Assembly (NCBI GenBank): GCA_963692865.2
Contig: CAXXHI010000003.1
Coordinates: 1-50,489 of the forward strand
DNA from: a bacterium
Lineage (GTDB): Bacteria; UBA8248
DNA length: 50,489 nt
Reading direction: 5' to 3'
Shown: piece after piece, positions 7,957 to 44,191 of the stretch
Layout: every line of letters starts with the position of its first letter
Numbering within the stretch: position 1 is the stretch's first letter
Program-made: the position numbers and the translations under genes
The notes under the pieces: generated by a model
Seen by the model: only the letters and a program-made list of their open reading frames with translations
Told to the model about the DNA's origin: nothing
Databases searched by the model: none

Positions 7957-8231
7957 AACGGATTTCTCCTTGCGACGAACTCGTTGACGGCGACGCCAAG
8001 GCTATCAGGGGCGGGCGGTTCAGGCAAAACGACCAGCGTAAATTCAGGCTTTCCGAAGAAGAAAACCCGACCCTCAAGGGGTTGTTGAAAAACCTGTCCC
8101 TCTCGGATCAACCACGTTTTATCCGTAGGGGCCGTTCGCGAACGGCCCTTCCCGGAGAAGAAACGGGCGCTTCACGAAGCGCCCCCTGTCCTCATTGCGA
8201 GTAAGAGCGTCAGCGCCGCATCAAGGGATAG

Positions 8232-8346
8232 CCCTTCGATACGCCGCCTCCGGCGGCTACTCAGGGTGAGGAAAACAAAAAACACCCTCATCCCGAGTAG
8301 GCCCGCAAGGGCCGTATCGAGAGCCTGCCCTGAGCCTGTCGAAGGG
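8232..8346. repeat. REP-like palindrome pair (CCTCATCCYGAG..GTATCGA / TTCGATACG..CTCAGG family)
   Basis: Near-identical units recur at 42567-42605 and 42638-42675. Confidence 0.75.
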
Positions 8347-8406
8347 GACGCGGGAAAACGGCCTTCCCGTCCCCCTTGTCGTTAACCCCCGAACCCCCCC
8401 TTGTCA

Positions 8407-8718
8407 GGGGCTGTTGAGAAAGTCCCGCAAAAGGAGCGTACTGAATTTCACTCCCCCCTTGAGGGTCGGGCTTCCCGAGGGGAAAGCCCGACGAAGAGGC
8501 CGAGTCCTTTGGACGAAGGCCGATTCGGTGGGGGGCAAATCTCGTTTTGCGCCATTCCGAATAATACCCCCCACCAGTTCGCTTTCGGGCTTACGCCCTC
8601 AGCTCACTGACTCCCCCTCAAGGGGGGAGTGAATTTCCCCTCTACTTGTTCGACAATAGCCCTCAAGAGGTGAGTCAATTCATAAGCGCATGTCGATTGA
8701 GACTTTTTCAACAGCCCC
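8407..8718. mobile_element. MITE-like element, 312 bp
   Basis: TIRs GGGGCTGTTGAGAAAGTC / GACTTTTTCAACAGCCCC (17/18 match); 5-bp direct repeat TGTCA at 8402-8406 and 8719-8723. Confidence 0.75.
8448..8632. repeat. Hairpin repeat family with TCACTCCCCCCTTGAGGG..CCCTCAAGGGGGGAGTGA ends, copy A
   Basis: Inverted ends; related copies at 41554-41749 and 42251-42923. Confidence 0.8.
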
Positions 8719-8776
8719 TGTCAGGGGGGGCTTTTTTCACCCCTCGCCGTGGGCATTGCTTTTACCCCCCTGACAA

Positions 8777-8969
8777 GGGGGTGTTGAAAAACCCCTCCTC
8801 GCTCGGATTGACCACCGCCGTCATTGTCGTTTCTATTGTAGGGGCCGCATATCATGCGGCCCGGCTTTTTCGCCTTCACAATACGGGTCGCATGATATGT
8901 CGGACATATATGTCCGACCTACGGGTAAAACGTGGTTGATCCGAGAGGGACAGGTTTTTCAACAGCCCC
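8777..8969. mobile_element. MITE-like element, 193 bp, carrying a GTAG REP doublet
   Basis: TIRs GGGGGTGTTGAAAAACC / GGTTTTTCAACAGCCCC (16/17); 5-bp direct repeat GACAA at 8772-8776 and 8970-8974. Confidence 0.75.
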
Positions 8970-9272
8970 GACAAGGGGGGACAGGGGGGTTGGTTTTGTA
9001 GGGAAAGGCCCCCGTGCCTGTCCTGACGCGCCCTCCAATCAGGGACAACCACGGGGGGTTGTCCCTACGATTCCTGAATCGAAGATATCCCGCACTCCGT
9101 TAAAACACGGCCCGTGCTTGAAATCCGCGGCGCAATCCGCAATGGTTGGTTTGATATGGGCGAACATATTCTCCATGCGGTTGGGGGAGTAGCCGCTTCA
9201 TGTTTCTCGGGCCGTGTATGGACTTCGTGTCCAGCGAACCCGGTTCTTGTAAAGATTGATTGAGAATCCGAG

Positions 9273-10706: not shown

Positions 10707-11240
10707 ATGCCGATGAGCCGTCTTGCGCCGCTTGAGCCCGAGAACATGCCGCCCCGTCAACGAGATGCGTATGAGGAACTCATCGCCAACCAGCGCGGCG
10801 GCGTGCGCGGGCCTTTCGGCGTCTGGGTGCGAAGCCCCGGCCTCGTCATCGCCCTTCGCGGGCTGATGAAGTTTTATTACGAGGAAAGCGTCATCACCGA
10901 AGACATCCGCGAACTCGCCATCCTCATCACCACGCGCCATATGGGGGCGACCTACGCCTTCTCCGCCCACGAGGCGCAGGCGCTCGACAGCGGCCTTACG
11001 CCCTCCCTCGTGGCCGCCGTGATGGCGCAGGAGGCGCCTGTGGAGGGCACAGAGCTTGAGCTTTGCGTATACAGGTATTGCACCGAGCTGCTCGAAACCA
11101 AAAAGGCGTCGGACGCCGCCTACCGGGAGGCGTTCTCCCTGCTCGGGGAGAAGGGCGTGGTCGACCTCACCGCCCTCGTAGGCTTCTATTCGGCCATCTC
11201 ACTGACGCTGAACGCCTTCGAGATACCGCCCGTTACGTGA
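10707..11240 (+). CDS. Carboxymuconolactone decarboxylase family protein
   Basis: RG.V.GPF..W..SP, RELAIL, H...A...GL, G.VDL..LVGFY pattern; AGGAG RBS. Confidence 0.85.
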   Translation: MPMSRLAPLEPENMPPRQRDAYEELIANQRGGVRGPFGVWVRSPGLVIALRGLMKFYYEESVITEDIRELAILITTRHMGATYAFSAHEAQALDSGLTPSLVAAVMAQEAPVEGTELELCVYRYCTELLETKKASDAAYREAFSLLGEKGVVDLTALVGFYSAISLTLNAFEIPPVT

Positions 11241-11378: not shown

Positions 11379-12722
11379 ATGGCAAGAAAAAGAACACACG
11401 AAATACGAGACCCCATTCATGTTTTCATCAGACTGGATTCTGATGAGAGGAAAGTTCTTGATTCGCCGCCATTTCAGCGATTGCGACATATTCACCAATT
11501 GGCCCTGACATATCTCGTCTATCCGGGTGCGACTCACAAGAGATTCGAGCATTCACTCGGCGTCATGGAGCTTGCAAGCAGGATTTATGATGTCGTGACG
11601 GAACCGGAGAATATTTATCAGGAGTCTGCATCCGTCAGGAACATGATTCCGAAGCATAGGGAGTTTGAGCATCTAAAATGGAGAAGGACGTTAAGACTCG
11701 CAGCGTTATGCCATGACTTGGGTCATCTGCCGTTTTCCCATGCGTCCGAAGCATTGTTGCCGCAGGGTTGGGATCATGAGCGCATGACGATGGAAATCAT
11801 ATTGAGCGAGCAAATGGCGAGCATTTTGGAAGAAATTGGCGTGCAGCCGAAAGACGTGGCGAAATTGGCGATTGGACCGAAGAAATCGAAACCCTATATG
11901 GATGTCGAGCTCGATTATTGGGAGAGCATTTTATCGGAAATCATCACGGGGGACGTGTTCGGCGCCGACAGGATGGATTATTTGCTGCGGGATTCCTATC
12001 ACGCGGGGGTCGCCTACGGGAAATTCGATCATCACCGTTTGATTGACACGATTAGGATATTGCCCAAGCAGGGAACGGATGATTCGCAAGAAACGGATAT
12101 TTCGGAAGAGCCGCATCTGGGTGTCGAGGAAGGCGGATTGGAATCCGCCGAGGCATTGTTGCTCGCGCGATATTTCATGTTTTCACAAATCTATTTTCAC
12201 CCCGTCCGCCTCATTTATGATGAGCATTTGTCGGATTTTTTGAAATCCTGGCTGGAGGGAGGGATGTTTCCGACGGATTGCCGAGGGCATTTGAAGCATA
12301 CGGATAATGAAGTAATATCCGCCATGTTATCCATAGCCAAAGATAAGTCTCACCCCGCCCATTTGCATGCTGACCGAATAATTCATCGGCGGCATTTCAG
12401 AAGTATTTACAGGTCTACTGCGGAAGATAGAAAACTTTCAGGTTTCAAACCTGGCAGGAAAATATATGAAGCTGCTTGCGAGATGTTCGGTGAGGAAAAT
12501 GTGAAGCATATTGAAAGAACTCAAACGAGAAGAATCAATGATTTCCCGGTTCTCGTACAAAGGGCGAGAATTACGGGCGCGTTGAGCGAGAAAGAAACTT
12601 TCTCGGGGGTTCCGCTGGCGTCCTGTGGGCATGTTTTCATTTCATCCGAAATGAGAGGTCGAGCCGGTAACTGGCTCAGAGAAAATAGAGAGAAAATCCT
12701 TTCATCCGTTGAGGGGGGGTAG
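11379..12722 (+). CDS. HD-domain phosphohydrolase, SAMHD1/YwfO-type dNTP triphosphohydrolase-like (copy 1)
   Basis: IRDPIH, FQRLR.I.QL, YPGATHKRFEHSLG, HDLGHLPFSH, HE, DRMDYLLRD and YFH motifs; AT-richer than its neighbours. Confidence 0.92.
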   Translation: MARKRTHEIRDPIHVFIRLDSDERKVLDSPPFQRLRHIHQLALTYLVYPGATHKRFEHSLGVMELASRIYDVVTEPENIYQESASVRNMIPKHREFEHLKWRRTLRLAALCHDLGHLPFSHASEALLPQGWDHERMTMEIILSEQMASILEEIGVQPKDVAKLAIGPKKSKPYMDVELDYWESILSEIITGDVFGADRMDYLLRDSYHAGVAYGKFDHHRLIDTIRILPKQGTDDSQETDISEEPHLGVEEGGLESAEALLLARYFMFSQIYFHPVRLIYDEHLSDFLKSWLEGGMFPTDCRGHLKHTDNEVISAMLSIAKDKSHPAHLHADRIIHRRHFRSIYRSTAEDRKLSGFKPGRKIYEAACEMFGEENVKHIERTQTRRINDFPVLVQRARITGALSEKETFSGVPLASCGHVFISSEMRGRAGNWLRENREKILSSVEGG

Positions 12723-12727
12723 GAGAT

Positions 12728-13267
12728 ATGGAGCGATTGGAGAGAGCCGCTGTTTTGCTGTCTTTGGTTGAGAAACTAAAAGACGGAGACAGTTGGTGCG
12801 GGGAGACGCACGTCCAGAAGAGCACCTATTTTTTACAGAATTTATGGGGTGTCCCGCTGGACCTCGATTTCATTCTCTATAAGTATGGCCCCTTTTCTTT
12901 TGACCTGGGCGATGAAATATCCTGGATGCGGGCGAACGACGTTCTCAAATTGCAGCCGCAGCGGCGTCCTTACGGACCGAAGATCGTGCCTGCTGAAAAC
13001 GCGGAACTCTTGAAGAGAACGTATCCGAAACAAATGGAGCGGTATGCCGATGAGGTTCAAAAGGTCGCGGATGAATTCGCCTATATGGGCGTGGCGACCC
13101 TGGAGAGATACGCGACGGCGCATTACGTCTCGCAAAATTACGAAGAAGTGGGCGAAGGCGGGATCGCGGCGAAAATCGCCGAATTGAAGCCGCACATCAG
13201 CCATGTCCAGGCGGAGGAAGCCGTCGCGTTTGTTGCTCAGTTAAGAAGCGATTTGTCGGATTTGTGA
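12728..13267 (+). CDS. YwgA-like / DUF4065-related winged-helix protein (copy 1)
   Basis: G.T.VQKSTYFLQ, F.LYKYGPFS..L, LE..AT..Y and KP motifs; starts 5 nt after the HD stop with an AGGAG RBS. Confidence 0.75.
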   Translation: MERLERAAVLLSLVEKLKDGDSWCGETHVQKSTYFLQNLWGVPLDLDFILYKYGPFSFDLGDEISWMRANDVLKLQPQRRPYGPKIVPAENAELLKRTYPKQMERYADEVQKVADEFAYMGVATLERYATAHYVSQNYEEVGEGGIAAKIAELKPHISHVQAEEAVAFVAQLRSDLSDL

Positions 13268-13344
13268 GTGATGCGCACTCGTCTTTTTTGACCAACAAGA
13301 ATCCTTTTCTCTGCGATTAACATAAATGGCCAGCAGGCATGCCC

Positions 13345-29714: not shown

Positions 29715-29811
29715 TGGCGGGAACGCGTGGGAGTCGAACCCACCGACGAAGTGATTAGCCCCGTCCACTGGATTTGAAGTCCAGGCGGCACACCGGCGCC
29801 GATGCGCTCCC
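29715..29811 (-). tRNA. selC: tRNA-Sec (anticodon UCA)
   Basis: Minus strand reads GGGAGCGC...CTGGACTTCAAATCCAG...GGTTCGACTCC...GCGTTCCC-G-CCA: 8-bp acceptor stem, long variable arm, TCA anticodon (29775-29777), encoded CCA, 97 nt. Confidence 0.96.
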
Positions 29812-31386: not shown

Positions 31387-31523
31387 GGGGTTGTTGAAAA
31401 ACCCCTCGTCGGGGGCATTGCCTTTACCCCCCTGACAAGGGGGGGTTGGTTCCGACGAGGACATGTTCAACAACCCTCGTAGGGGCGGACCCGCGTGTCC
31501 GCCCGGCAACCCGCGAGCCGCCC
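31387..31523. repeat. Short TIR-family element plus GTAG REP
   Basis: GGGGTTGTTGAAAAACCCCTCGTCGG ... CCGACGAGGACATGTTCAACAACCC, followed by GTAGGGGCGGAC..GTCCGCCC. Confidence 0.65.
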
Positions 31524-31696: not shown

Positions 31697-32977
31697 TTGG
31701 AGCAAGGGAAATTCGAGTTCAGATGCCCGATTTACGGGTTCGTCGCCCTCTCTGAATGGGAGAGGGATATCATTTCCTAGCCGGCGTTTCAGAGACTGAG
31801 GCGCATCGGCCAGCTCGCCTTTACGAACTATGTCTACCCCGGAGCAATGCACACGCGTTTCGAGCACTCGCTCGGCGTCATGCACATGGCGACGATGCTT
31901 TACGACGGGATTGTGGCTTGCTCCAGAGACCTGCTGGAAAGGACGTTCGGATATAACGACGAGGGCCTTGGGCGGCATCGCGCCCTGGTGCGATTGACGG
32001 CGCTCCTTCATGACGTCGGCCATTCCCCGTTTTCGCATGCCGGAGAAGAAATCTTTCCGAGCAAATAGGATTCCGAATCGGGAAAACCGTATGCGCATGA
32101 AGAGTATTCCGCAGCGGTCATACGCAATCGTTTTGCGGATGTCATCGACAGCCATCGCGCGAATAACAATTACGGGTTTACCGCCGATGATGTCGCTGCC
32201 CTTCTGGAAGGAAGCGCAGACACCGAAAGCGCGCTGTTTTGGCGTGGTCTTGTAACGAGCCAGATGGATGCGGACCGGATTGATTACCTGCTTAGAGATT
32301 CTCATCATGCGGGAGTCGACTACGGCCGTTTCGATTGGCGGCGCCTTGTTCAAACCGTCGAGGCGGTTCCGGGTGTGCGAGGCGGGAGTCCGGCCCTCGG
32401 GGTGTCCGAGGGCGGGTTGCACGCGGCGGAAGGCTTGATTCTCGCGCGCTATTTCATGTTCACCCAGGTCTATTTCCATAAAACCCGCGTCGTCTACGAT
32501 CATCATCTCAAGGAAGCGCTCAAGGAAATTCTTCCCGGGGAGCGCTTTCCGCCGCCCACTCCGGATCGCCTTGGTGAATATCTCGATTGGGACGATTGGC
32601 GGGTCTTGGGCGCTCTGAAAAATGGCGAGGGCGGCGAACATGGCCGGCGAATTCTCGAACGGGATCATTGCCGGGAAGTATGGCATACGCCCGAGATGCC
32701 TGATACGAAAGACAAAAAGGAGTTGGCGGAGAAGAAGAGTAAATTGGGTGAACTGCTCGTCGCTGAGATTCCGGCGAAAAAATCCTGGTACAATACAGGA
32801 AGTTCCGATATTCCTGTTTTCACGGAAACTCCCGCTCGCGAGCGAAAACCGCTTTCTTCTTTTTCGTCTGTTGCGAGCAGCATTCAACCGATTCATCAGA
32901 TTCGATTATACGTGAAAGCCGAAGATCGGGAAAAAGCCAATCGGAGGCTGAGAGATAGGGGGAGCGACAATGGATGA
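31697..32977 (+). pseudogene. HD-domain dNTP triphosphohydrolase-like gene (copy 2), interrupted by two in-frame TAG codons
   Basis: One frame from TTG 31697 reads [86 protein letters not shown] at 31778-31780 and 32066-32068; no frameshift. Start codon uncertain. Confidence 0.88.
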
Positions 32978-33530: not shown

Positions 33531-33673
33531 CGGACAATCTGTTTATGCAGGGGCGGACATAGGTGTCCGCCCGCGCTGCTTCTCCGAAGAGGAGAGCCTG
33601 CGTATTTATCCGTGGGAGTGAGAAGGTGAAAAGGTCATAGGGACGCAGGGGCAACCCACGAGCCGCCCATGAA

Positions 33674-36600
33674 TCAGTCCCAAAGCCAGTCCAAGTCCGA
33701 AAATGCGAGATCTCTCCCGAAGTTCTGTATGTTGTCCCGCACGTTGAGAATCAAGCAGCGGTCATTGCCGCCGTTCTTGATGCCTCTCAGACCTCTGCCA
33801 ATCATCTGGAAATAGAGATTCGGGCTGTAGACCGGACGCGCCACAATGATGGCCCGTGTCTTGGGAGCATCGAAACCCTCACGGAATACCCCATAATTCA
33901 CGAGCGCTTTAATACTACCACCCCGAAATTCCTCTACCACCCTGCGACGTGTTGAAGTCTCCGTTTCTCCGCTCACGGCTCTCGCCTTTATACCTCTCGC
34001 GTTCAAGAGCGCCGCTACTGTCTTTGCGTGCTCAACAGATGTCGCAAAGATGAGAGTGGGCCAATTCGGATTGACATACTTTTCGTATGCTTCGACGATC
34101 CGCTTAGTGCGCTCTGCATCTTCCGCGATACGCGCTTCCACGCTTTGGGGGAGCCACCAGGGAACACGTTGCATTTCCTGCAATTCGTCTTCGTTCAGGA
34201 CAAATTCTCCCCCTTCAATAGTTTCGTGATCGGCGCGTGCGAGTACGCCCATATTTTGTAATTCGCCGATGACATCCTGCGGGTTATCGCTTTCGAACGC
34301 CCCCGCATCCAGCCGATTGCTCCCGTAACGTCTGGCCAGCCAAGCCGTTTCCTCTTCGTTGTATCCACGATATGGCGTTGCGGTGAGGCCGAGAAGAAAC
34401 GGCTCGTTCGCTTCCTGCCGCCGAGTCAAACCGATATCCTGCATGACTGAAGTGAAAGTCGGGGCAATCGATCTATGCGCCTCATCGAAAACGACGAGAT
34501 TAAAATCCGTTAGAAAATCGTACTCTGTGGCCTGATTCAAGAGTCTGGCGTTGAGTGTCTGGATAGTCGCGACGACAATATGGAGATCGCTCGTCGGCAG
34601 GGGTCTGGGCTGCCCGGCCCACATTCTGGAGATACGCAAAAACGACCCATTTGCGCCGATACTATACCAAGCCTGCCGCCATGCTTCGACTGCCTGTTCG
34701 CACAACTCGTCGCGATCCGCGACCCAAAGGATTCCACCTTTGAAAGCGTCATCACGCATCGCTTCGACAATCGCCTGCACCGCGACGCGCGTTTTGCCCG
34801 ACCCTGTGGGCATGCTAATCATGCCGCGCCGTTCGTTGCCGTTTACACGGCCGTTACGGAACATGGATCGTACCTTATCGACGATGTTTCGCTGATAACC
34901 ATGGAGTGGCGGGAGCGAGTAAGGTCCCTCAATTTCGAGAAATGGATCGCGGCGTCGGTTTCGCTCTCCCGCCCATTCGGCCGAGAATCCAAGCGAAAGA
35001 ACAAAATCAATAGCAGGTTTTAGACCGGCCCATTTCTTCGGCGGGTTCAATTGATCCAGAGCCCATCGATATTGTCTCAGAGCGTCCGAGTGATACGTCG
35101 CTATGGCGGCTTCGGCAATATCTACACCAGACAACGTACTATTATCGCTCTCGAGTATGGCGAGCAACGAATTGGGTAAACCCCGGCGGAGATTTTGCTC
35201 TCCTACCGCTTTCAGAAGGCGTGCAGGGTCAGTTGAACATTTCCTTATCTCGGCACGTCGCTCTTCGATTTCTATTCTAGTTTTGTATTGTAATATCTTA
35301 TCAAGTTGATATTCATGGAGTTTCAGGTCCTCACAGACAAGGCGCAGTTCCTTGCGTTCGTCGTCCGTGCGGGCCACATAGATGTTGGGAGCTTGAAAAA
35401 ACCGCTCTGATTCGCTGCCGCCGATAAGAATTTTTTCACAGCGTATGAGTTGATAAGTTTTCCACTGCCAATGTTCGAGGCCAAAATGCTCCTCCAACCC
35501 CGGCCAGATGTCGAGTAGGGGGATCGGGTATTCTTCGCCGATGAGTTCTGGCGTTGGTTCCGCCAGATTGAGCGCTTTCTTAATCTTGTCGGCCTTGGAG
35601 TGATTCAGCAATGTATGCAACGCTGCCGGGTTTTTGGGCTGCGGCCCGAGTGCGTCTGCGAGCGGGACGATACCGTCAGAGGTTCGAACTCGCCCATGTT
35701 CAAGCAACATCTGAAGGGCTGGCGATTCGAAAGGCAATTTTCCATAGGCGTCTTGGGTGTCGTGCCGCATCGTCCACTTCTCATAAGTGGCGTCGAGCGA
35801 CAGCAAGGCATCTGTGTATAACGTCTTGCTTTCCTCGGAAAGAGCGGTTAGGACTCTGAGCGGACCGCTTCCTTTTGTTGATTCAAAATTCAAATGAGAG
35901 CGAAGGGGATTTCTGGGCGAGACTTTTCTGAGGAATTTCTCGCGGCATTCGGACTGGAAGTTCCCACGCTGTAGTTCTGGCCACAAGTCGTATTTCTCGT
36001 GCGGCGCATCTGTCACGCCGAGATTACACAACAGTTCAATGTCAAGTTCATGAAAATCTACGTTCACGGTGGCATTATTATCCCGGCTCCCGTCCCCGGG
36101 GATAATATCGCCGGGCAGCAATACGGCGTGGCGTGGTCGCCAGTCGCCGGATCGCGTCCTCACGTGGAGTTTTAACTTCCAGTCCCTATGCTCGCGAATG
36201 ATGTCATGGGCTATTTCCCCTACTTTGCGTGCCTGCTCCCAAAATTCAGTCCAGGGATTTGTGTTCGCCCCCATGTTGCTATTCAGAACCTTCTCTGCGA
36301 TGAGCCTAAAGATGCTTTCGGGCGATGGTGGTTTTATGCCCAGTTTTTTCAACGCTGCTAACGTGTCCGTGTCTGCCACCAGTCGCCAGTGGACACGTGA
36401 CTCTGGAGGCTCTAGGGAGTGGTGGTCATTGGCTAACTCTTCTGGCAAGAATAGATGTTCGGGGTCCGGCTCCCTCCATTCATCGCTTGCCGTCCGGATA
36501 ATGCTGCCAAGTTTATGCTGTGTTGCTCTAATCTCAGGCGAGATCAGAGCAGCCGTCTGGATAGCCGCTTTAGCAGCTTCAATGATTTTGTCGGGATCTT

Positions 36601-38098
36601 GTTTTCTTGTAAGAGATTTTAGCCATTTGGCGATAGTGGCTCTGGGGACTCCGTCTGCCGTCGAGCTAGGTGGTTCGCCTTCTGGATGAAATAGTCTGTT
36701 GATAGTAGAGAACCGAATGCGTGAGAGAGCTCTATGGTGGAGCCAGTTGGGGGGTCGGTCCGAATACGCCGCCCACCGGTCGAGAGCCTCTCTGTCTTTC
36801 CGGCGGTCCACGGTCAATTCCTTCGGGGGATACGAAATTTCCGAGGTAGCGCGTAGTTTCCCTTTCTGATCCGGGATAACTTCGCGGCCGTAAAGATTGG
36901 AAAACAGGTGTTTGCGAAGCCGGTCAGCCTCTTCTGAGTCACCCGGTTCATGTCGACGGGGCAACGCGTCAAGATGGCGAGCGGGGTCGGTTTGCGTCGT
37001 CAGTTCCGACAATTCGTCGGCGATCATCTTCGCCGCTACCCCGATCATTTCGTTGTTGTATATGCCGGGCAAGAGATTCTGCCGATCCTCATTCGTTTTC
37101 CAAGGCGCGTTCAGAATGCCAGCGACAAGGCTTGCCGTTTTTGTAGGGAAGAAGGCCCAGAATACGCCTGGATCGGTCAAGTGATCGAGTGGCACAGCCC
37201 ACCAGATCGGTACCTCGTCGCCGTCGCCTTGCGAACTTTTATCCGCTTGGGCATTACTCGACAACTGATGGGTGCGTCTGAATAGCTTCCACTTGCTGGT
37301 CGTCTCTCCATCAGTGAGACGATATTCACCATCTACATTTTTGAGTTCTAGAGTTCGATTGAGGATATCCCATGGGCCGTTATCCTTGAGCTTCAATTGG
37401 CGAACGTGCTCGACAAATAAAAGAAACTCCGGCGGGAATTCGCTCATTTGCTCACTGAGGTGGCCGTGCGCGCCGGTTTTTAGCCGAAGACGCACGATGT
37501 TCGTCGCCCAACTCATGAGTTGGCGGAGAATATTGTCCCTCTCGCAATTTTCAACAGGATCGATGGGATCGGCCAAGCGCAGCACCGGATAGTGTTCGGC
37601 ATCCGGCACGACCTGCCGAATGCACTCGCGGGTGCGACCACGATCAAACCGGAACGAACCTGAGCGGCTGAAAAATTCCGGGGAATCGGTGACGCCGAGA
37701 ACAGACTTGAAACCAAGACCGAACCTCCCGATCTGGCTGGCTTCCCGTTTGGGCGACATATTCGAAAACATGAGTGCCGTTACACCGGCCTCGTCGATTG
37801 TTTCTCCATCATCTGCGCAGTAGAGATAAGCCTCGGTCAAATGAATCTCGATACGTCCGCCGCCCGGTTTGCCGGCCAAAGCATCGGCGCTGTTCTGTAC
37901 CAGTTCGAACAACTGGCGATGAGCGTAGCCGCCACGTGTCGTGCCTTCTTCAAGGTTGGCGTGCTCACCCACTAAATGGGGTTGTTCGCCATAGGCACTG
38001 AGGGTTTTTTGCGATTCCTCGGCGATATAGGAACCTAGTTCTCCATCCATTCCGGCCCAATTGACCGTTTGTGTTGGGTCATTCTCATGTTTGAGCAT
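33674..38098 (-). CDS. Sacsin-type GHKL ATPase fused to an SF2 DEAH (ResIII-like) helicase, 1,474 aa
   Basis: N-terminal ELVQNSADA, ADDG, IGRFGLGFKSV; C-terminal MPTGSGKT, DEAH, GLTATP, EGFDAP, QMIGRGLR; GAGGA RBS before ATG 38098. Confidence 0.9.
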   Translation of the reverse strand: MLKHENDPTQTVNWAGMDGELGSYIAEESQKTLSAYGEQPHLVGEHANLEEGTTRGGYAHRQLFELVQNSADALAGKPGGGRIEIHLTEAYLYCADDGETIDEAGVTALMFSNMSPKREASQIGRFGLGFKSVLGVTDSPEFFSRSGSFRFDRGRTRECIRQVVPDAEHYPVLRLADPIDPVENCERDNILRQLMSWATNIVRLRLKTGAHGHLSEQMSEFPPEFLLFVEHVRQLKLKDNGPWDILNRTLELKNVDGEYRLTDGETTSKWKLFRRTHQLSSNAQADKSSQGDGDEVPIWWAVPLDHLTDPGVFWAFFPTKTASLVAGILNAPWKTNEDRQNLLPGIYNNEMIGVAAKMIADELSELTTQTDPARHLDALPRRHEPGDSEEADRLRKHLFSNLYGREVIPDQKGKLRATSEISYPPKELTVDRRKDREALDRWAAYSDRPPNWLHHRALSRIRFSTINRLFHPEGEPPSSTADGVPRATIAKWLKSLTRKQDPDKIIEAAKAAIQTAALISPEIRATQHKLGSIIRTASDEWREPDPEHLFLPEELANDHHSLEPPESRVHWRLVADTDTLAALKKLGIKPPSPESIFRLIAEKVLNSNMGANTNPWTEFWEQARKVGEIAHDIIREHRDWKLKLHVRTRSGDWRPRHAVLLPGDIIPGDGSRDNNATVNVDFHELDIELLCNLGVTDAPHEKYDLWPELQRGNFQSECREKFLRKVSPRNPLRSHLNFESTKGSGPLRVLTALSEESKTLYTDALLSLDATYEKWTMRHDTQDAYGKLPFESPALQMLLEHGRVRTSDGIVPLADALGPQPKNPAALHTLLNHSKADKIKKALNLAEPTPELIGEEYPIPLLDIWPGLEEHFGLEHWQWKTYQLIRCEKILIGGSESERFFQAPNIYVARTDDERKELRLVCEDLKLHEYQLDKILQYKTRIEIEERRAEIRKCSTDPARLLKAVGEQNLRRGLPNSLLAILESDNSTLSGVDIAEAAIATYHSDALRQYRWALDQLNPPKKWAGLKPAIDFVLSLGFSAEWAGERNRRRDPFLEIEGPYSLPPLHGYQRNIVDKVRSMFRNGRVNGNERRGMISMPTGSGKTRVAVQAIVEAMRDDAFKGGILWVADRDELCEQAVEAWRQAWYSIGANGSFLRISRMWAGQPRPLPTSDLHIVVATIQTLNARLLNQATEYDFLTDFNLVVFDEAHRSIAPTFTSVMQDIGLTRRQEANEPFLLGLTATPYRGYNEEETAWLARRYGSNRLDAGAFESDNPQDVIGELQNMGVLARADHETIEGGEFVLNEDELQEMQRVPWWLPQSVEARIAEDAERTKRIVEAYEKYVNPNWPTLIFATSVEHAKTVAALLNARGIKARAVSGETETSTRRRVVEEFRGGSIKALVNYGVFREGFDAPKTRAIIVARPVYSPNLYFQMIGRGLRGIKNGGNDRCLILNVRDNIQNFGRDLAFSDLDWLWD

Positions 38099-38289
38099 GT
38101 TGTCCTCGTGGCAAGGATATTCATGGGAATGATTCATTAAGATAAAATCATTCCCGGTCGCATCCCGCCAACATACCGAGCCTTTCCTCACGTGGCAAGA
38201 TAATTCACGATCATGAAAAACCACCGGGCAACTCGCGAGCCGCCCCTGCGACGGCTTTTCCCTTTTCGCGGGCGAGCCGCAATCCCCCC

Positions 38290-39228
38290 TCAGCCCAACG
38301 CCTTCGGATACGGCTCGAAAAGGGTCTGCGCTTCCAGATATTCCGATCCCAAGCGCGCGGTCCACTCTCGGAGGGTTTCAAGCGGCCCACCCAGCGGGAT
38401 TCTCCCCTCCCGGTATGCTTCGAGCGCGTCGAGAAAGCGTCTTTTTTCTTCATTGGTGATTTTCTCCGATAGATGCCCCATGGCGTGGGTGAGGGCGTTC
38501 ACCCATGAGGCTTGGCCGGGCGTGCGGGCGAGGAGCCGCAAGAGCGCGCTTTCGTAAGCGGAGGCGACCTCGCTGAAGGCGCGTTTATCAAAGTTCGCGG
38601 CGACCCGCCCCATCTCGCGCATGGTCTCCTGATCAAATGCCAGGAACAGGAGTTTGTTCTCCGCGTGGTAGCGGGCGAGGCTGTCGATGCGGCCTGATTC
38701 CCTGGCTTCGCGGAAGGCGGCGAGCGCGAAGATTCTGGTGAGGAAACCCGCGCGAACTTGCCTGTCGTTCAGACCGGCCTCGTCTACGAACGCGAGGGCG
38801 CCGAACGCTTCGAGCGCGGCTCCGGCGAACAGGCCCGGCCCCTGGGCGATTTGCTCATCCGAGTCGGGAGCGGGGAATATCCTGGCGTCGGCGATCGCGC
38901 AGGACGGCGATTTCGCCTTGAGGATAAAGCCGTCGACTTCTTCGAGATTCTCAAGAAACAATCTGGAAAAAGCGTTCATGTCCCGAGTCAGGTGTCTCTT
39001 CGTGCTGGGCTGATAGAGGCGTTTCCTCCCGCCTTGCAGGTGGATTCGTATCGGGTCCCTCGGCGTGCCGAGGCCGATCTCCACCTCGGGGCAGACGGGC
39101 CGGAAGCGCACGTGGGGTTTCAGGCGCTCGACGAAGGATGAGGAGATGCGCTCGCCGTTGTAGCGGCACGCCTCGAACTCCAGGCACTTGCTCACCACGA
39201 CGACGGGTTTGGCGAACGCGCGGTTCAT
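38290..39228 (-). CDS. DUF523 + DUF1722 (YbgA-like; 2-thiouracil desulfurase-related) protein
   Basis: VS.CL...CRYNG, VCPEVEIGLGTPR, ILK.KSPSC, YL..QT.FEPYP motifs. Confidence 0.88.
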   Translation of the reverse strand: MNRAFAKPVVVVSKCLEFEACRYNGERISSSFVERLKPHVRFRPVCPEVEIGLGTPRDPIRIHLQGGRKRLYQPSTKRHLTRDMNAFSRLFLENLEEVDGFILKAKSPSCAIADARIFPAPDSDEQIAQGPGLFAGAALEAFGALAFVDEAGLNDRQVRAGFLTRIFALAAFREARESGRIDSLARYHAENKLLFLAFDQETMREMGRVAANFDKRAFSEVASAYESALLRLLARTPGQASWVNALTHAMGHLSEKITNEEKRRFLDALEAYREGRIPLGGPLETLREWTARLGSEYLEAQTLFEPYPKALG

Positions 39229-43010: not shown

Positions 43011-44191
43011 CTATTCCTCTCCGCGTAATATGATGGAGACCATCTCCCGCAGGCCGACCGCCTCCACGTTCTTCGCGACGGGGTGGCGCTCCTCGCCCGA
43101 ATAGACGATGAAGGCGCGCTCGGGCTTCACGTCCTCGCAGGCGTGGTGGAAGCCCTTGCCGGGGACCGGGGGAGAGGCCGCGTTTGATCTCGACCGCCCA
43201 CGGACCCCGCCTCCCCGGGAGTTCGAGCACGAGGTCGATCTCCGCGCCCGCCAGGGTGCGGTAGAAGCTCGCCATGGTCCGGGGCGGGGCGACGGCGAGG
43301 AGGTTCTCGATGACGAAACCCTCCCCAGCTCGGCCCCACGACCGGGTGGCCCGCGAGCGCGTCGTAATCCTCGACCCCGAGCAGGGCGTGGACGATGCCG
43401 CTGTCGCGCACGTACGTCTTGGGCGATTTGACCAGCCGCTTCTTGACGTTCGCGTGGAACGGGCGCAGGCGGCGGACGAGGAGCAGGTCGACCAGCAGGT
43501 CGATGTAGCCGGTCACCGTCGGGGCGCTGACCGCAAGCCCCGCGGCCAGCTTCGACGCGTTGAGCAGCGTGCCCTGCCCGTGGGCCAGCATGGTCCAGAA
43601 CCGCTCCAGCGTCTCCGCCGGGATGCGCCGGCCGAACTGCGTCACGTCGCGCTCCAGGTAGGAGCGGATGAAATTCCGCCGGAAGGTCATGCTGTCGGCG
43701 TCGTCGTCGGCCAAAAAGCTGTCCGGGAAGCCGCCGCGCACCCACAGCTCCGTGGCGGCCCGCGCGTCGGGCGCGGCCTCGCTCACGTCGAGCGGGCCGA
43801 GTTCGACGTATTCGATCCGCCCGGCGAGGCTCTCCCCCGATTGGCGGAGCAGGTCGAGCGACGCCGATCCCAGCATCAGAAAGCGGCCCGTTCGTTTCCC
43901 CCGCCTGCGGCCCCGGTCGATCAGGCCGCGCAACTCCTGGAACAGCTCCGGGGCGCGGTGGATCTCGTCGAGGATGACGAGGCGGTCCTCGTATTCGCCG
44001 AGATAGAGCGCGGGGTCGGCGAGTTTCTCCCGATCCGTGCGGGATTCCAGGTCGAGATAGATCGCGTCCGCGCTTTCGGCGATCTCGAGGGCCAGCGTCG
44101 TCTTGCCGACCTGGCGCGCGCCGAGCAGGGCGACGGAGGCCTGTCTGCCGAGCGCTTTCAGTATGTTTTGGTATGATCGTCTGTATATCAT
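43011..44191 (-). pseudogene. AAA_14 ATPase + DUF4143 protein with two +1 frameshifts
   Basis: GARQVGKT, ILDEIH, GSAS, RGGFP, KSPK.Y..DSG motifs. The C-terminus (SWEGFVIEN..FYRT..GAEIDL..VEIK..KGFH) is spread over three frames, with breaks at 43323-43326 and 43161-43172. Confidence 0.85.

Follow-up and report, generated by a model that had tools for sequence, protein, structure and literature searches.

The stretch of DNA studied here comprises positions 1 to 50,489 of contig CAXXHI010000003.1 (assembly GCA_963692865.2), from a bacterium of the UBA8248 lineage; its full length of 50,489 nucleotides (nt) is referred to as the window. It carries two copies of a two-gene module in which a gene for an HD-domain enzyme is followed by a gene for a small partner protein. 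In copy 1, HD1 (11379-12722, + strand, 447 amino acids (aa)) encodes an intact SAMHD1/EF1143-type HD phosphohydrolase, a putative (deoxy)nucleoside triphosphate ((d)NTP) triphosphohydrolase effector, and P1 (12728-13267, + strand, 179 aa) encodes a stand-alone homologue of the C-terminal toxin-binding domain of DarG. The gap between the two genes is 5 nt, and a GGAG lies directly 5' of the P1 start. In copy 2, HD2 (31697-32977, + strand) is a pseudogene of a second HD subfamily, and it overlaps by 8 nt with P2 (32970-33530, + strand, 186 aa), an intact partner gene of a second subfamily. The first-pass annotation of the window had described this pair as tightly coupled and present twice, and both of these points were borne out.

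The two copies also proved to be as divergent as that annotation had claimed. HD1 and HD2 are 38% identical (E 3e-67), and P1 and P2 are 30% identical (E 5e-19); with such identities the copies are homologous and old, and not the product of a recent duplication. Both are richer in A+T than their flanks, as had likewise been noted: the four module genes have a G+C of 0.48-0.55, versus 0.63-0.68 in the flanks and 62% in the whole window. The G+C at third codon positions (GC3) of the module genes is 0.53-0.63, versus at least 0.74 in the surrounding metabolic (host) genes. The composition of the module is foreign to the host.

A consensus scan placed a terminator-like hairpin with a T-run (13264-13292, + strand) across the P1 stop codon. 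Its 7-bp stem (13264-13282) precedes CTTTTTTGAC, and the assignment is no more than a match to a pattern. Scans for sigma-70 promoters near both modules gave none above the shuffled expectation, and a search for att-like direct repeats found no convincing flanking repeats around module 1.

The HD Enzyme

The HD1 and HD2 products both exceeded the Pfam cut-offs for HD (33-42 bits; cut-off 22) and HD_assoc_2 (35-38 bits; cut-off 23.1). Matches of HD1 in the Protein Data Bank (PDB) were to the Aquifex protein 2hek (E 1e-52), to EF1143 (2o6i, E 3.5e-26) and to SAMHD1 (E about 1e-23). A profile of 41 family members matched EF1143 at E 5e-39 and SAMHD1 at E 1e-34, the latter over profile positions 4-352 of 437. 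The SAMHD1 alignment, of about 340 positions, took in extended motifs around the metal ligands, beyond the minimal H...HD...D pattern. Residues H58, H112-D113, H116, H121 and D197 of HD1 were invariant in the 41 sequences and aligned with the RFEHSLGV, CHDLGHGPFSH and D(K/R)xDY motifs of SAMHD1 and EF1143. The homology to SAMHD1 and EF1143, which spans the HD proteins at full length, and the presence of all the catalytic motifs, both read from sequence, upheld the earlier description of the HD protein as dNTPase-like.

Models of Dgt-type enzymes (PADLOC dGTPase, NCBIfam NF041026 and NF003701) scored HD1 and HD2 at 19.7-25.9 bits, versus cut-offs of 383-400. Because these matches were restricted to the N-terminus and below the cut-offs, HD1 and HD2 were assigned to the SAMHD1/EF1143 type and not to the Dgt type. 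The C-terminal 100 or so residues of the HD proteins matched no known domain.

In separate observations, HD2 gave a weak match to a Cas3 HD model (E 0.0011), and a second HD gene lacking a partner was seen near the pair in some of the related loci described below, which are designated by L numbers (L046, 7189-8370, - strand; L027, 19107-20009, + strand). The second HD gene of L046 encodes a canonical, full-length HD_assoc_2 protein (E 1.8e-73), whereas the partner-associated clade matches only the first half of that profile.

The Partner Protein

Neither P1 nor P2 matched any Pfam model at E<=0.01, including that of Panacea (PF13274, SocA_Panacea, DUF4065). PF13274 was touched by only one of 42 members of the partner family, at E 0.099, and membership of the partner in the Pfam Panacea family was therefore rejected. 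The partners were instead matched by DarG profiles. The PADLOC DarG profile aligned with P1 at positions 164-322 of 329 (E 4.9e-12) and with P2 over its C-terminal half (E 4e-7), and the NCBIfam antitoxin_DarG profile was matched at positions 170-332 of 338 (P1, E 3.2e-10; P2, E 3.2e-4), far below its cut-off. All of these matches were confined to the C-terminal half of the profiles, starting at position 164-172.

The predicted fold of P1 led to the same domain. An AlphaFold model based on a 42-sequence alignment had a mean pLDDT of 95.5, and the only significant PDB match to it was chains B and D of 7yk3 (E 3.6e-5, probability 1.0, TM 0.69/0.66); every other match had E >=0.3. The entry 7yk3 is the M. 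tuberculosis DarTG complex. By the profile matches and the modelled fold, P1 and P2 are stand-alone homologues of the DarT-binding C-terminal domain of DarG.

That DarG domain is described as binding and inhibiting DarT (consulted part of PMC13621843, crediting Deep et al. 2023). The first-pass annotation had likened the partner to DUF4065 (Panacea) antitoxins. This likeness held at the level of the DarG C-terminal-domain group, to which DUF4065 proteins are said to be homologous in the same part of PMC13621843, and failed at the level of the PF13274 model. A weak lead towards Panacea came from an Atlas neighbour cluster, in which 13% of the members carry PF13274.

The partner family has the conserved motifs SWCGETHxQK, LYKHGPFSFDL, PYGP, LERxATA and LKPHI, with P2 lacking the SWCGETH motif typical of the P1 type. 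One source names partner homologues "uncharacterized protein YwgA", which was the sole support found for the link to ywfO-ywgA drawn earlier. The PADLOC model PDC-M19A gave a weak match to the N-termini of the partners. A search of 1.84 billion representatives with the partner profile returned 2983 clusters at E<=0.001; the best 150 of these 2983 were all stand-alone proteins of about 137-263 aa, a result that does not bear on distant fused forms. Against 50,697 phage records P1 had no relative, and against 72,556 plasmid records it had one weak tblastn match, to a gene annotated "macro domain-containing protein"; both searches were made with P1 and not with HD1.

Predicted Complex of HD1 and P1

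Prediction of the HD1-P1 complex, in which each protein was given its own alignment, yielded an ipSAE of 0.83 (runs of 0.83, 0.85 and 0.81), versus 0.01 for the best of three controls. Contact agreement between the runs was at least 81%, and the pLDDT of the partner was at least 86. In calibration, 116 of 157 solved complexes attained the ipSAE mark, as did 2 of 215 mismatched pairs, counts that are only a rough guide for HD1 and P1 as own alignments were used for this pair. The score is a model confidence and not a measurement. We know of no solved complex of an HD enzyme with a DarG domain, and for this reason a score owed to a memorised structure seems unlikely. The multimer check proposed in the first-pass annotation was thus answered with a predicted direct complex.

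On the P1 side, the predicted interface comprises conserved motifs, at residues 25-26, 47-53, 81-84, 121-126 and 153-156. On the HD1 side, it comprises residues 167-183, 240-246, 348-356 and 381-415, which include the family invariants W181, E244/P245, F389/P390 and P412; the metal ligands lie outside it. If P1 is an inhibitor, it would more likely affect the assembly of the enzyme or its allosteric lobes than plug the active site.

Distribution of the Pair and State of the HD Gene

Relatives were sought in one genome per species (185,579 species) with two P1-type peptide patterns, which gave 512 candidate stretches, of which 486 were confirmed. The related loci are the best 80 of these 486, ranked by partner match, and their partner genes are intact by construction. 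They are spread over many bacterial phyla and several archaeal orders (including Methanothrix, Methanosarcinales, ANME and Methanoperedens), and those outside the lineage of the window have 44-56% identity to P1. This spread across bacteria and archaea is patchy. Close relatives of HD2 and P2 were not found among the 80 P1-type loci.

An intact HD gene lies directly upstream of the partner in 58 of the 80 loci, ending -44 to +19 nt from the partner start, and is thus within the limits (genes at most 100 nt apart, in at least two species) used to define two-gene loci for Panacea/PanA. Counting intact and broken genes together, 74 of the 80 loci have an HD enzyme gene upstream, with no DarT in its place. 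The HD gene is cut by a contig end in three loci (L017, L023, L052) and disrupted in 13. Seven of the disruptions are deletions, truncations or insertions (L006, L016, L025, L049, L074, L077 and L067, the last by a DDE transposase, i.e., an insertion sequence), and six are frameshifts only (L034, L043, L048, L053, L061, L075). Six further loci have no HD gene (L047, L058, L060, L069, L079 and L062, with a 36-residue stub left in L062). Overall, 19 of the 77 informative loci have a partner without an intact HD gene, which is also the state of copy 2 in the window.

The HD2 Pseudogene

The HD2 reading frame is interrupted by two in-frame TAG codons, at 31778-31780 and 32066-32068. All 11 aligned relatives of HD2 have Gln at the first of these sites and Glu, Asp, Asn, Ser or a similar residue at the second, and the intact orthologue P0391 (86% identity, 426 aa) has Glu at the second site. 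Recoding or readthrough of TAG in HD2 was considered and rejected on the grounds of these residues and because TAG is the terminator of 16 of the 34 window genes checked, HD1 among them. As TAG is an ordinary stop here and the relatives have sense residues at both positions, both stops are single-base nonsense mutations, and HD2 is a nonsense-mutated pseudogene beside an intact P2 gene. HD2 otherwise keeps its catalytic motifs. The first-pass annotation had overlooked the stops.

Defence Genes near Related Loci

The sample for genomic context consisted of 32 loci: 38 had flanks of 6 kb or more to either side of the pair, and six of these, from the window's own lineage (L001, L002, L004, L005, L006, L055), were removed. 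The 362 largest non-overlapping open reading frames (ORFs) within 6 kb of the pair were scanned with PADLOC at E<=1e-25. Defence models were matched by 51 of the 362 ORFs, in 20 of the 32 loci. With the same library, one of 30 ordinary window proteins was matched, a control that gauges the specificity of the models and is not a matched genomic baseline. Homologous pairs, for which the earlier proposal called for a co-occurrence score, are often located in defence islands. The one control match is a gene of the window (43127-44191, - strand) for an AAA_14 and DUF4143 ATPase, a PADLOC PDC-S01 candidate (E 2e-70).

In four of the 32 loci (L015, L021, L050, L051; three archaeal and one deltaproteobacterial) the pair is embedded in an Hma system, in the order HmaA-HD-partner-HmaB...HmaC; the pair of the window is not itself within an Hma system. 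Type I restriction-modification (RM) genes adjoin the pair in L013, L036 and L039, and type III RM genes are near it in L045 and L070. Other neighbours are HEC-01 (L046), a pAgo system (L069), AbiLi (L059), a DpdF-like helicase (L016), DrmD with a reverse transcriptase (L027), a BsoBI-type RM system (L062) and an MkoC/PDC-S37-like helicase (L077). The site upstream of kdpA that the pair occupies in Methanothrix has differing defence genes (L036, L046, L047) and shows the pattern of a variable hotspot.

A second combination recurs beside the pair in Methanothrix and Methanosarcinales loci, namely a gene for an NsnB/AriA/HEC-03B-like ABC-type ATPase (AAA_15/AAA_21) and, after it, an unannotated ORF of about 175-205 aa (L013, 10696-12548; L036, 6671-8487; L044, 10702-12563; L060, 7974-9793; L047, 11-1398). 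It may be a separate two-gene defence candidate.

History of Copy 1

Seven loci (L001-L006 and L055) are from close relatives, in which the flanking proteins are 72-98% identical to those of the window. In all seven, the pair is at the identical site, between the homologue of the gene at 10707-11240 and malQ, although L006 has lost the 5' half of its HD gene. As the site is the same in seven related genomes, copy 1 must be an old, vertically kept insertion and not a recent arrival. The earlier statement that the copies had been dropped between unrelated genes needs to be amended for copy 1 as regards recency. That annotation had also held that core synteny without defence-island enrichment would count against its proposal; copy 1 is syntenic among its relatives, a partial instance of the former, and a lack of enrichment does not describe the wider sample.

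Relative to the orthologues, dN/dS was 0.12-0.15 for HD1 and 0.09-0.20 for P1, values which indicate that both genes of copy 1 are under purifying selection. The dS of the module was 0.69-1.6, versus 0.18-0.90 for the flanks in the same genome pairs (L001-L005, L055), roughly a two- to fourfold excess over most flanking genes, and the copy 1 genes exceed their neighbours in divergence at both synonymous and nonsynonymous sites. The raised dS could be due to a weaker constraint from codon bias, or to allelic replacement at a fixed site.

Interpretation of the Module

On balance, and with modest confidence, we favour the reading that the pair is a toxin-antitoxin-like module, probably defensive, in which a protein of the DarG C-terminal-domain type binds and restrains a SAMHD1-type nucleotide triphosphohydrolase. 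Each copy would be a bicistronic module that was acquired horizontally. The HD enzyme would hydrolyse dNTPs (most likely; possibly NTPs) and, when unrestrained, would starve DNA replication. The partner gene would be translationally coupled to the HD gene, and its product would bind the enzyme directly, at the family-specific C-terminal region and two loops and not at the metal site, and would keep it switched off in the undisturbed cell. The enzyme would be released on phage infection or when the module is lost. What we infer in this scheme is the enzyme's substrate, the sense of the regulation (inhibition versus activation), the trigger and the defence phenotype. Computational support was obtained for the homology, the catalytic motifs, the coupling, the predicted complex, selection on copy 1, the spread, the location among defence genes and the repeated decay of the enzyme gene. 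Of the two copies, the first looks functional and the second is decayed to an orphan partner.

The module proposed in the first-pass annotation retains its outline, as it is coupled, foreign in composition and present twice, with a SAMHD1-type HD enzyme and an antitoxin-like partner. It loses the link to PF13274, the integrity of HD2 and the recency of copy 1. The finding is better supported than that annotation could know, and it is less novel in concept.

Several observations weigh against the defensive toxin-antitoxin interpretation. The HD superfamily is chemically diverse, the HD_assoc_2 match spans only profile positions 2-109 of 222, i.e., the first half, and the far sub-threshold dGTPase matches cover only about 100 N-terminal residues of HD1 and HD2. 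Inhibition is not self-evident from the predicted complex because the interface misses the catalytic residues, and the partner could instead be a sensor or activator. No mobile vehicle is known for the module, since P1 has no phage relatives and only the one weak plasmid relative. Copy 1 stands alone among metabolic genes in the window, at the site shared by all seven relatives. No defence neighbour was seen in 12 of the 32 loci (L018, L019, L022, L032, L034, L041, L043, L065, L066, L067, L076, L080), all five Latescibacterota loci among them. The more frequent decay of the enzyme gene is a biased observation because loci were picked by partner score and the partner is always intact, and the six HD genes with frameshifts only could be assembly errors. 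In addition, we found no published experiments, whether on activity, toxicity, rescue or protection from phage, on such a pair (YwgA, YwfO, Panacea with HD, SAMHD1-like anti-phage), a result that is provisional as subscription literature was thinly covered.

Some of these points favour a housekeeping function, which we consider unlikely but the most serious competitor. The pair would then be a regulator of the nucleotide pool, in which the HD enzyme trims or sanitises dNTPs and the small protein is its regulatory subunit, the whole being an ordinary operon of ancient acquisition. The fixed site of copy 1 in seven relatives, the dN/dS of 0.09-0.20 and the 12 of 32 loci free of defence neighbours are all consistent with this, and the consulted parts of PMC3190883 and PMC11071499 describe EF1143, among other bacterial relatives, as an enzyme of the dNTP pool. 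Because copy 1 is fixed among metabolic genes and those 12 loci have no defence neighbour, a housekeeping role could apply in these lineages. However, the pair is rare and patchy (486 loci in 185,579 species in the two-pattern scan) and foreign in composition. One genome holds two divergent copies of which one is decayed, and the HD gene has been repeatedly lost elsewhere. The pair is found inside Hma systems, beside RM, pAgo, HEC-01 and AbiL genes and at the variable kdpA site of Methanothrix, and the dS of the module (0.69-1.6) is above that of its flanks (0.18-0.90).

It is decidedly improbable, in our estimation, that the small protein is not an inhibitor and instead acts mainly as a winged-helix autoregulator, or as a sensor or activator by which the enzyme is turned on. 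In its N-terminal half, the P1 model does have a helix-helix-hairpin-helix layout, MarR, PadR and PrfA-type proteins are listed below the DarG match in the fold search, and many antitoxins also repress their own operon; the avoidance of catalytic residues by the predicted interface would suit a regulator or activator as well. The MarR, PadR and PrfA matches were insignificant, however (E 0.3-1.4, TM 0.16-0.34), whereas the only significant fold match was to a protein-binding antitoxin domain and the family motifs sit in the predicted interface. That the partner is kept in loci which have lost the HD gene also fits a harmless protective protein better than an activator, although the sample is biased in this respect.

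Least probable of all is that the HD protein is no dNTPase and that the module works through some other HD-fold chemistry, for instance that of a nuclease or of a phosphodiesterase for a signalling nucleotide: the HD superfamily catalyses many reactions (PMC8177086, in the part consulted), HD2 has its weak Cas3 HD match (E 0.0011), the last 100 or so residues match no domain and the closest solved relative, 2hek, was deposited as "Hypothetical protein", but the SAMHD1 alignment extends over about 340 positions including the extended metal-ligand motifs, and EF1143, a demonstrated dNTPase, matches at E 5e-39.

Comparison with Known Systems

The closest precedent for the pair is pT33/T34, a predicted PanAT class that pairs an HD protein (CDD YdhJ) with a Panacea/DUF4065 antitoxin (Kurata et al. 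2022, Dataset S1; PMC8832971). In the part of the dataset consulted, its pairs come from five Firmicutes genomes, with two more pairs flagged as spurious, and all are marked "notest". Like the present pair, pT33/T34 is a two-gene operon with the toxin first, in which a YdhJ-type HD protein is paired with a small protein of antitoxin-like character. Its genes are -17 to +23 nt apart, and the class was predicted on the basis of neighbourhood conservation. It differs in that its antitoxins pass the Pfam gathering score for DUF4065, which P1 and P2 do not match, and in its restriction to five Firmicutes genomes, in contrast to the many phyla and archaea of the present pair; the two were compared by description and not by sequence. 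As the HD-Panacea pairing was already listed there, the concept is less novel. The earlier remark that the module could not be assigned to a named system holds in so far as no PADLOC-DB v2 model claims the pair, and is qualified by this predicted class.

The resemblance to DarTG is limited to the partner, which is homologous to the C-terminal toxin-binding domain of DarG in profile and in fold (7yk3). The present pair lacks both a macrodomain and DarT, and its free-standing partner of 179-186 aa is next to an HD enzyme. With the single-gene anti-phage dGTPase, reportedly described by Tal et al. in 2022, and with human SAMHD1, the HD enzyme shares its catalytic fold and motifs and the proposed effect, i.e., depletion of DNA precursors. 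The defence dGTPases are nevertheless of the Dgt family, for which HD1 and HD2 are far below the cut-offs, and they have no protein partner.

In Clover, the dNTPase CloA is accompanied by the nucleotidyltransferase (NTase) CloB and a p3diT signal (Yamaguchi et al. 2025 preprint, PMC12265719, in the part consulted), and as in the module proposed here a two-gene defence system has an accessory gene that restrains a dNTPase effector to limit self-toxicity. The restraint in Clover is via p3diT made by the NTase, whereas the present partner has no NTase match and is predicted to bind the enzyme. It matched no family of Pol-beta-type NTases, and its fold is that of the DarG C-terminal domain.

Hma-embedded candidates provide a comparison by position. 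Payne et al. 2024 (preprint, 10.1101/2024.01.29.577857) report that seven of nine tested embedded cassettes defended against phage, and the four loci in which the present pair is nested between hmaA and hmaB have the position that those authors used for discovery. In the main text of that paper, HD domain, phosphohydrolase, dGTPase and DarG are all absent. None of the HEC or PDC models of PADLOC-DB v2 matched HD1 or HD2. A pyrophosphohydrolase role has been speculated for YwfO (PMC4993169, in the part consulted).

Beyond the individual module, we tentatively suggest, as a possibility that we hold less firmly, that the pair represents an immune module, widespread in bacteria and archaea and as yet uncatalogued, in which a portable DarG-type domain, freed of macrodomain and DarT, gates a SAMHD1-like dNTPase. 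Nucleotide depletion is an antiviral strategy common to humans (SAMHD1) and bacteria (dGTPase, dCTP deaminase, Clover), and how cells protect themselves from nucleotide-depleting enzymes is a mechanistic question to which the pair offers a candidate answer, a protein inhibitor. If this suggestion is correct, it would be a third way to keep such immunity safe, after self-regulated dGTPases and the nucleotide signal of Clover. The DarG C-terminal domain would, like Panacea, be a reusable antitoxin module for unrelated toxins, and would be extended from a single system to a general toxin-neutralising module. Orphan partners, e.g., that of copy 2, could then reflect cross-protection against the enzyme of the other copy or against incoming HD modules. 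The pair would also add a candidate to the sparse defence list of methanogenic and methane-oxidising archaea, home of many of the related loci. Its predicted interface is a confident one, and its natural variants number in the hundreds, with enzyme knock-outs among them.

Surroundings of Copy 2 and Other Features of the Window

Copy 2 is in an island of low GC3, at about 30.9-38.3 kb, which also holds a gene for a TmtA-like ATPase-helicase (33674-38365, - strand, 1563 aa). The product of this gene is a sacsin-type HATPase with a ResIII/DEAD helicase. The first 400 residues of this protein align with positions 9-420 of the 1538-position PADLOC profile TmtA (Tiamat; E 1.9e-51), and its C-terminal part is a ResIII/DEAD/Helicase_C helicase that is RadD-like (E 1.6e-34). 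From these matches it looks like a variant of Tiamat with a different C-terminal half, and the defence-type ATPase-helicase that had been placed beside copy 2 was thereby confirmed. Its GC3 (0.57) is similar to that of the modules, and its true start is probably near 38136, because an ORF starting at the listed GTG (38365) runs into the adjacent gene. We regard it as genomic context for the pair, with no joint action implied.

Three copies of a 19-nt motif, GGCAACYCRCGAGCCGCCC, are present on the + strand of the window (31505-31523, 33650-33668 and 38227-38245), versus 0.15 matches expected, and none of 100 shuffles gave three. The copies bracket the two cassettes of island 2: one precedes HD2, one separates P2 from the helicase gene, and one lies shortly beyond the probable start of the latter. 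None of the 80 related loci contains the motif, which could mark a cassette boundary, serve in recombination or be a REP-like element. A GC-rich palindrome accompanies the motif region at 31481-31505 and 33549-33573.

A tRNA-Sec gene (29715-29811, - strand) was identified by ARAGORN and by Rfam (RF01852, 76.7 bits) between two dehydrogenase genes. It was the only tRNA found when the island edges were inspected, and the left border of island 2 is about 1 kb away. Upstream of copy 1, a stretch of 1.3 kb with a lower G+C of about 0.57 and no convincing ORF (7957-9272) is situated between two epimerase genes of divergent orientation, which are only about 170-750 nt apart in L002, L004 and L005.

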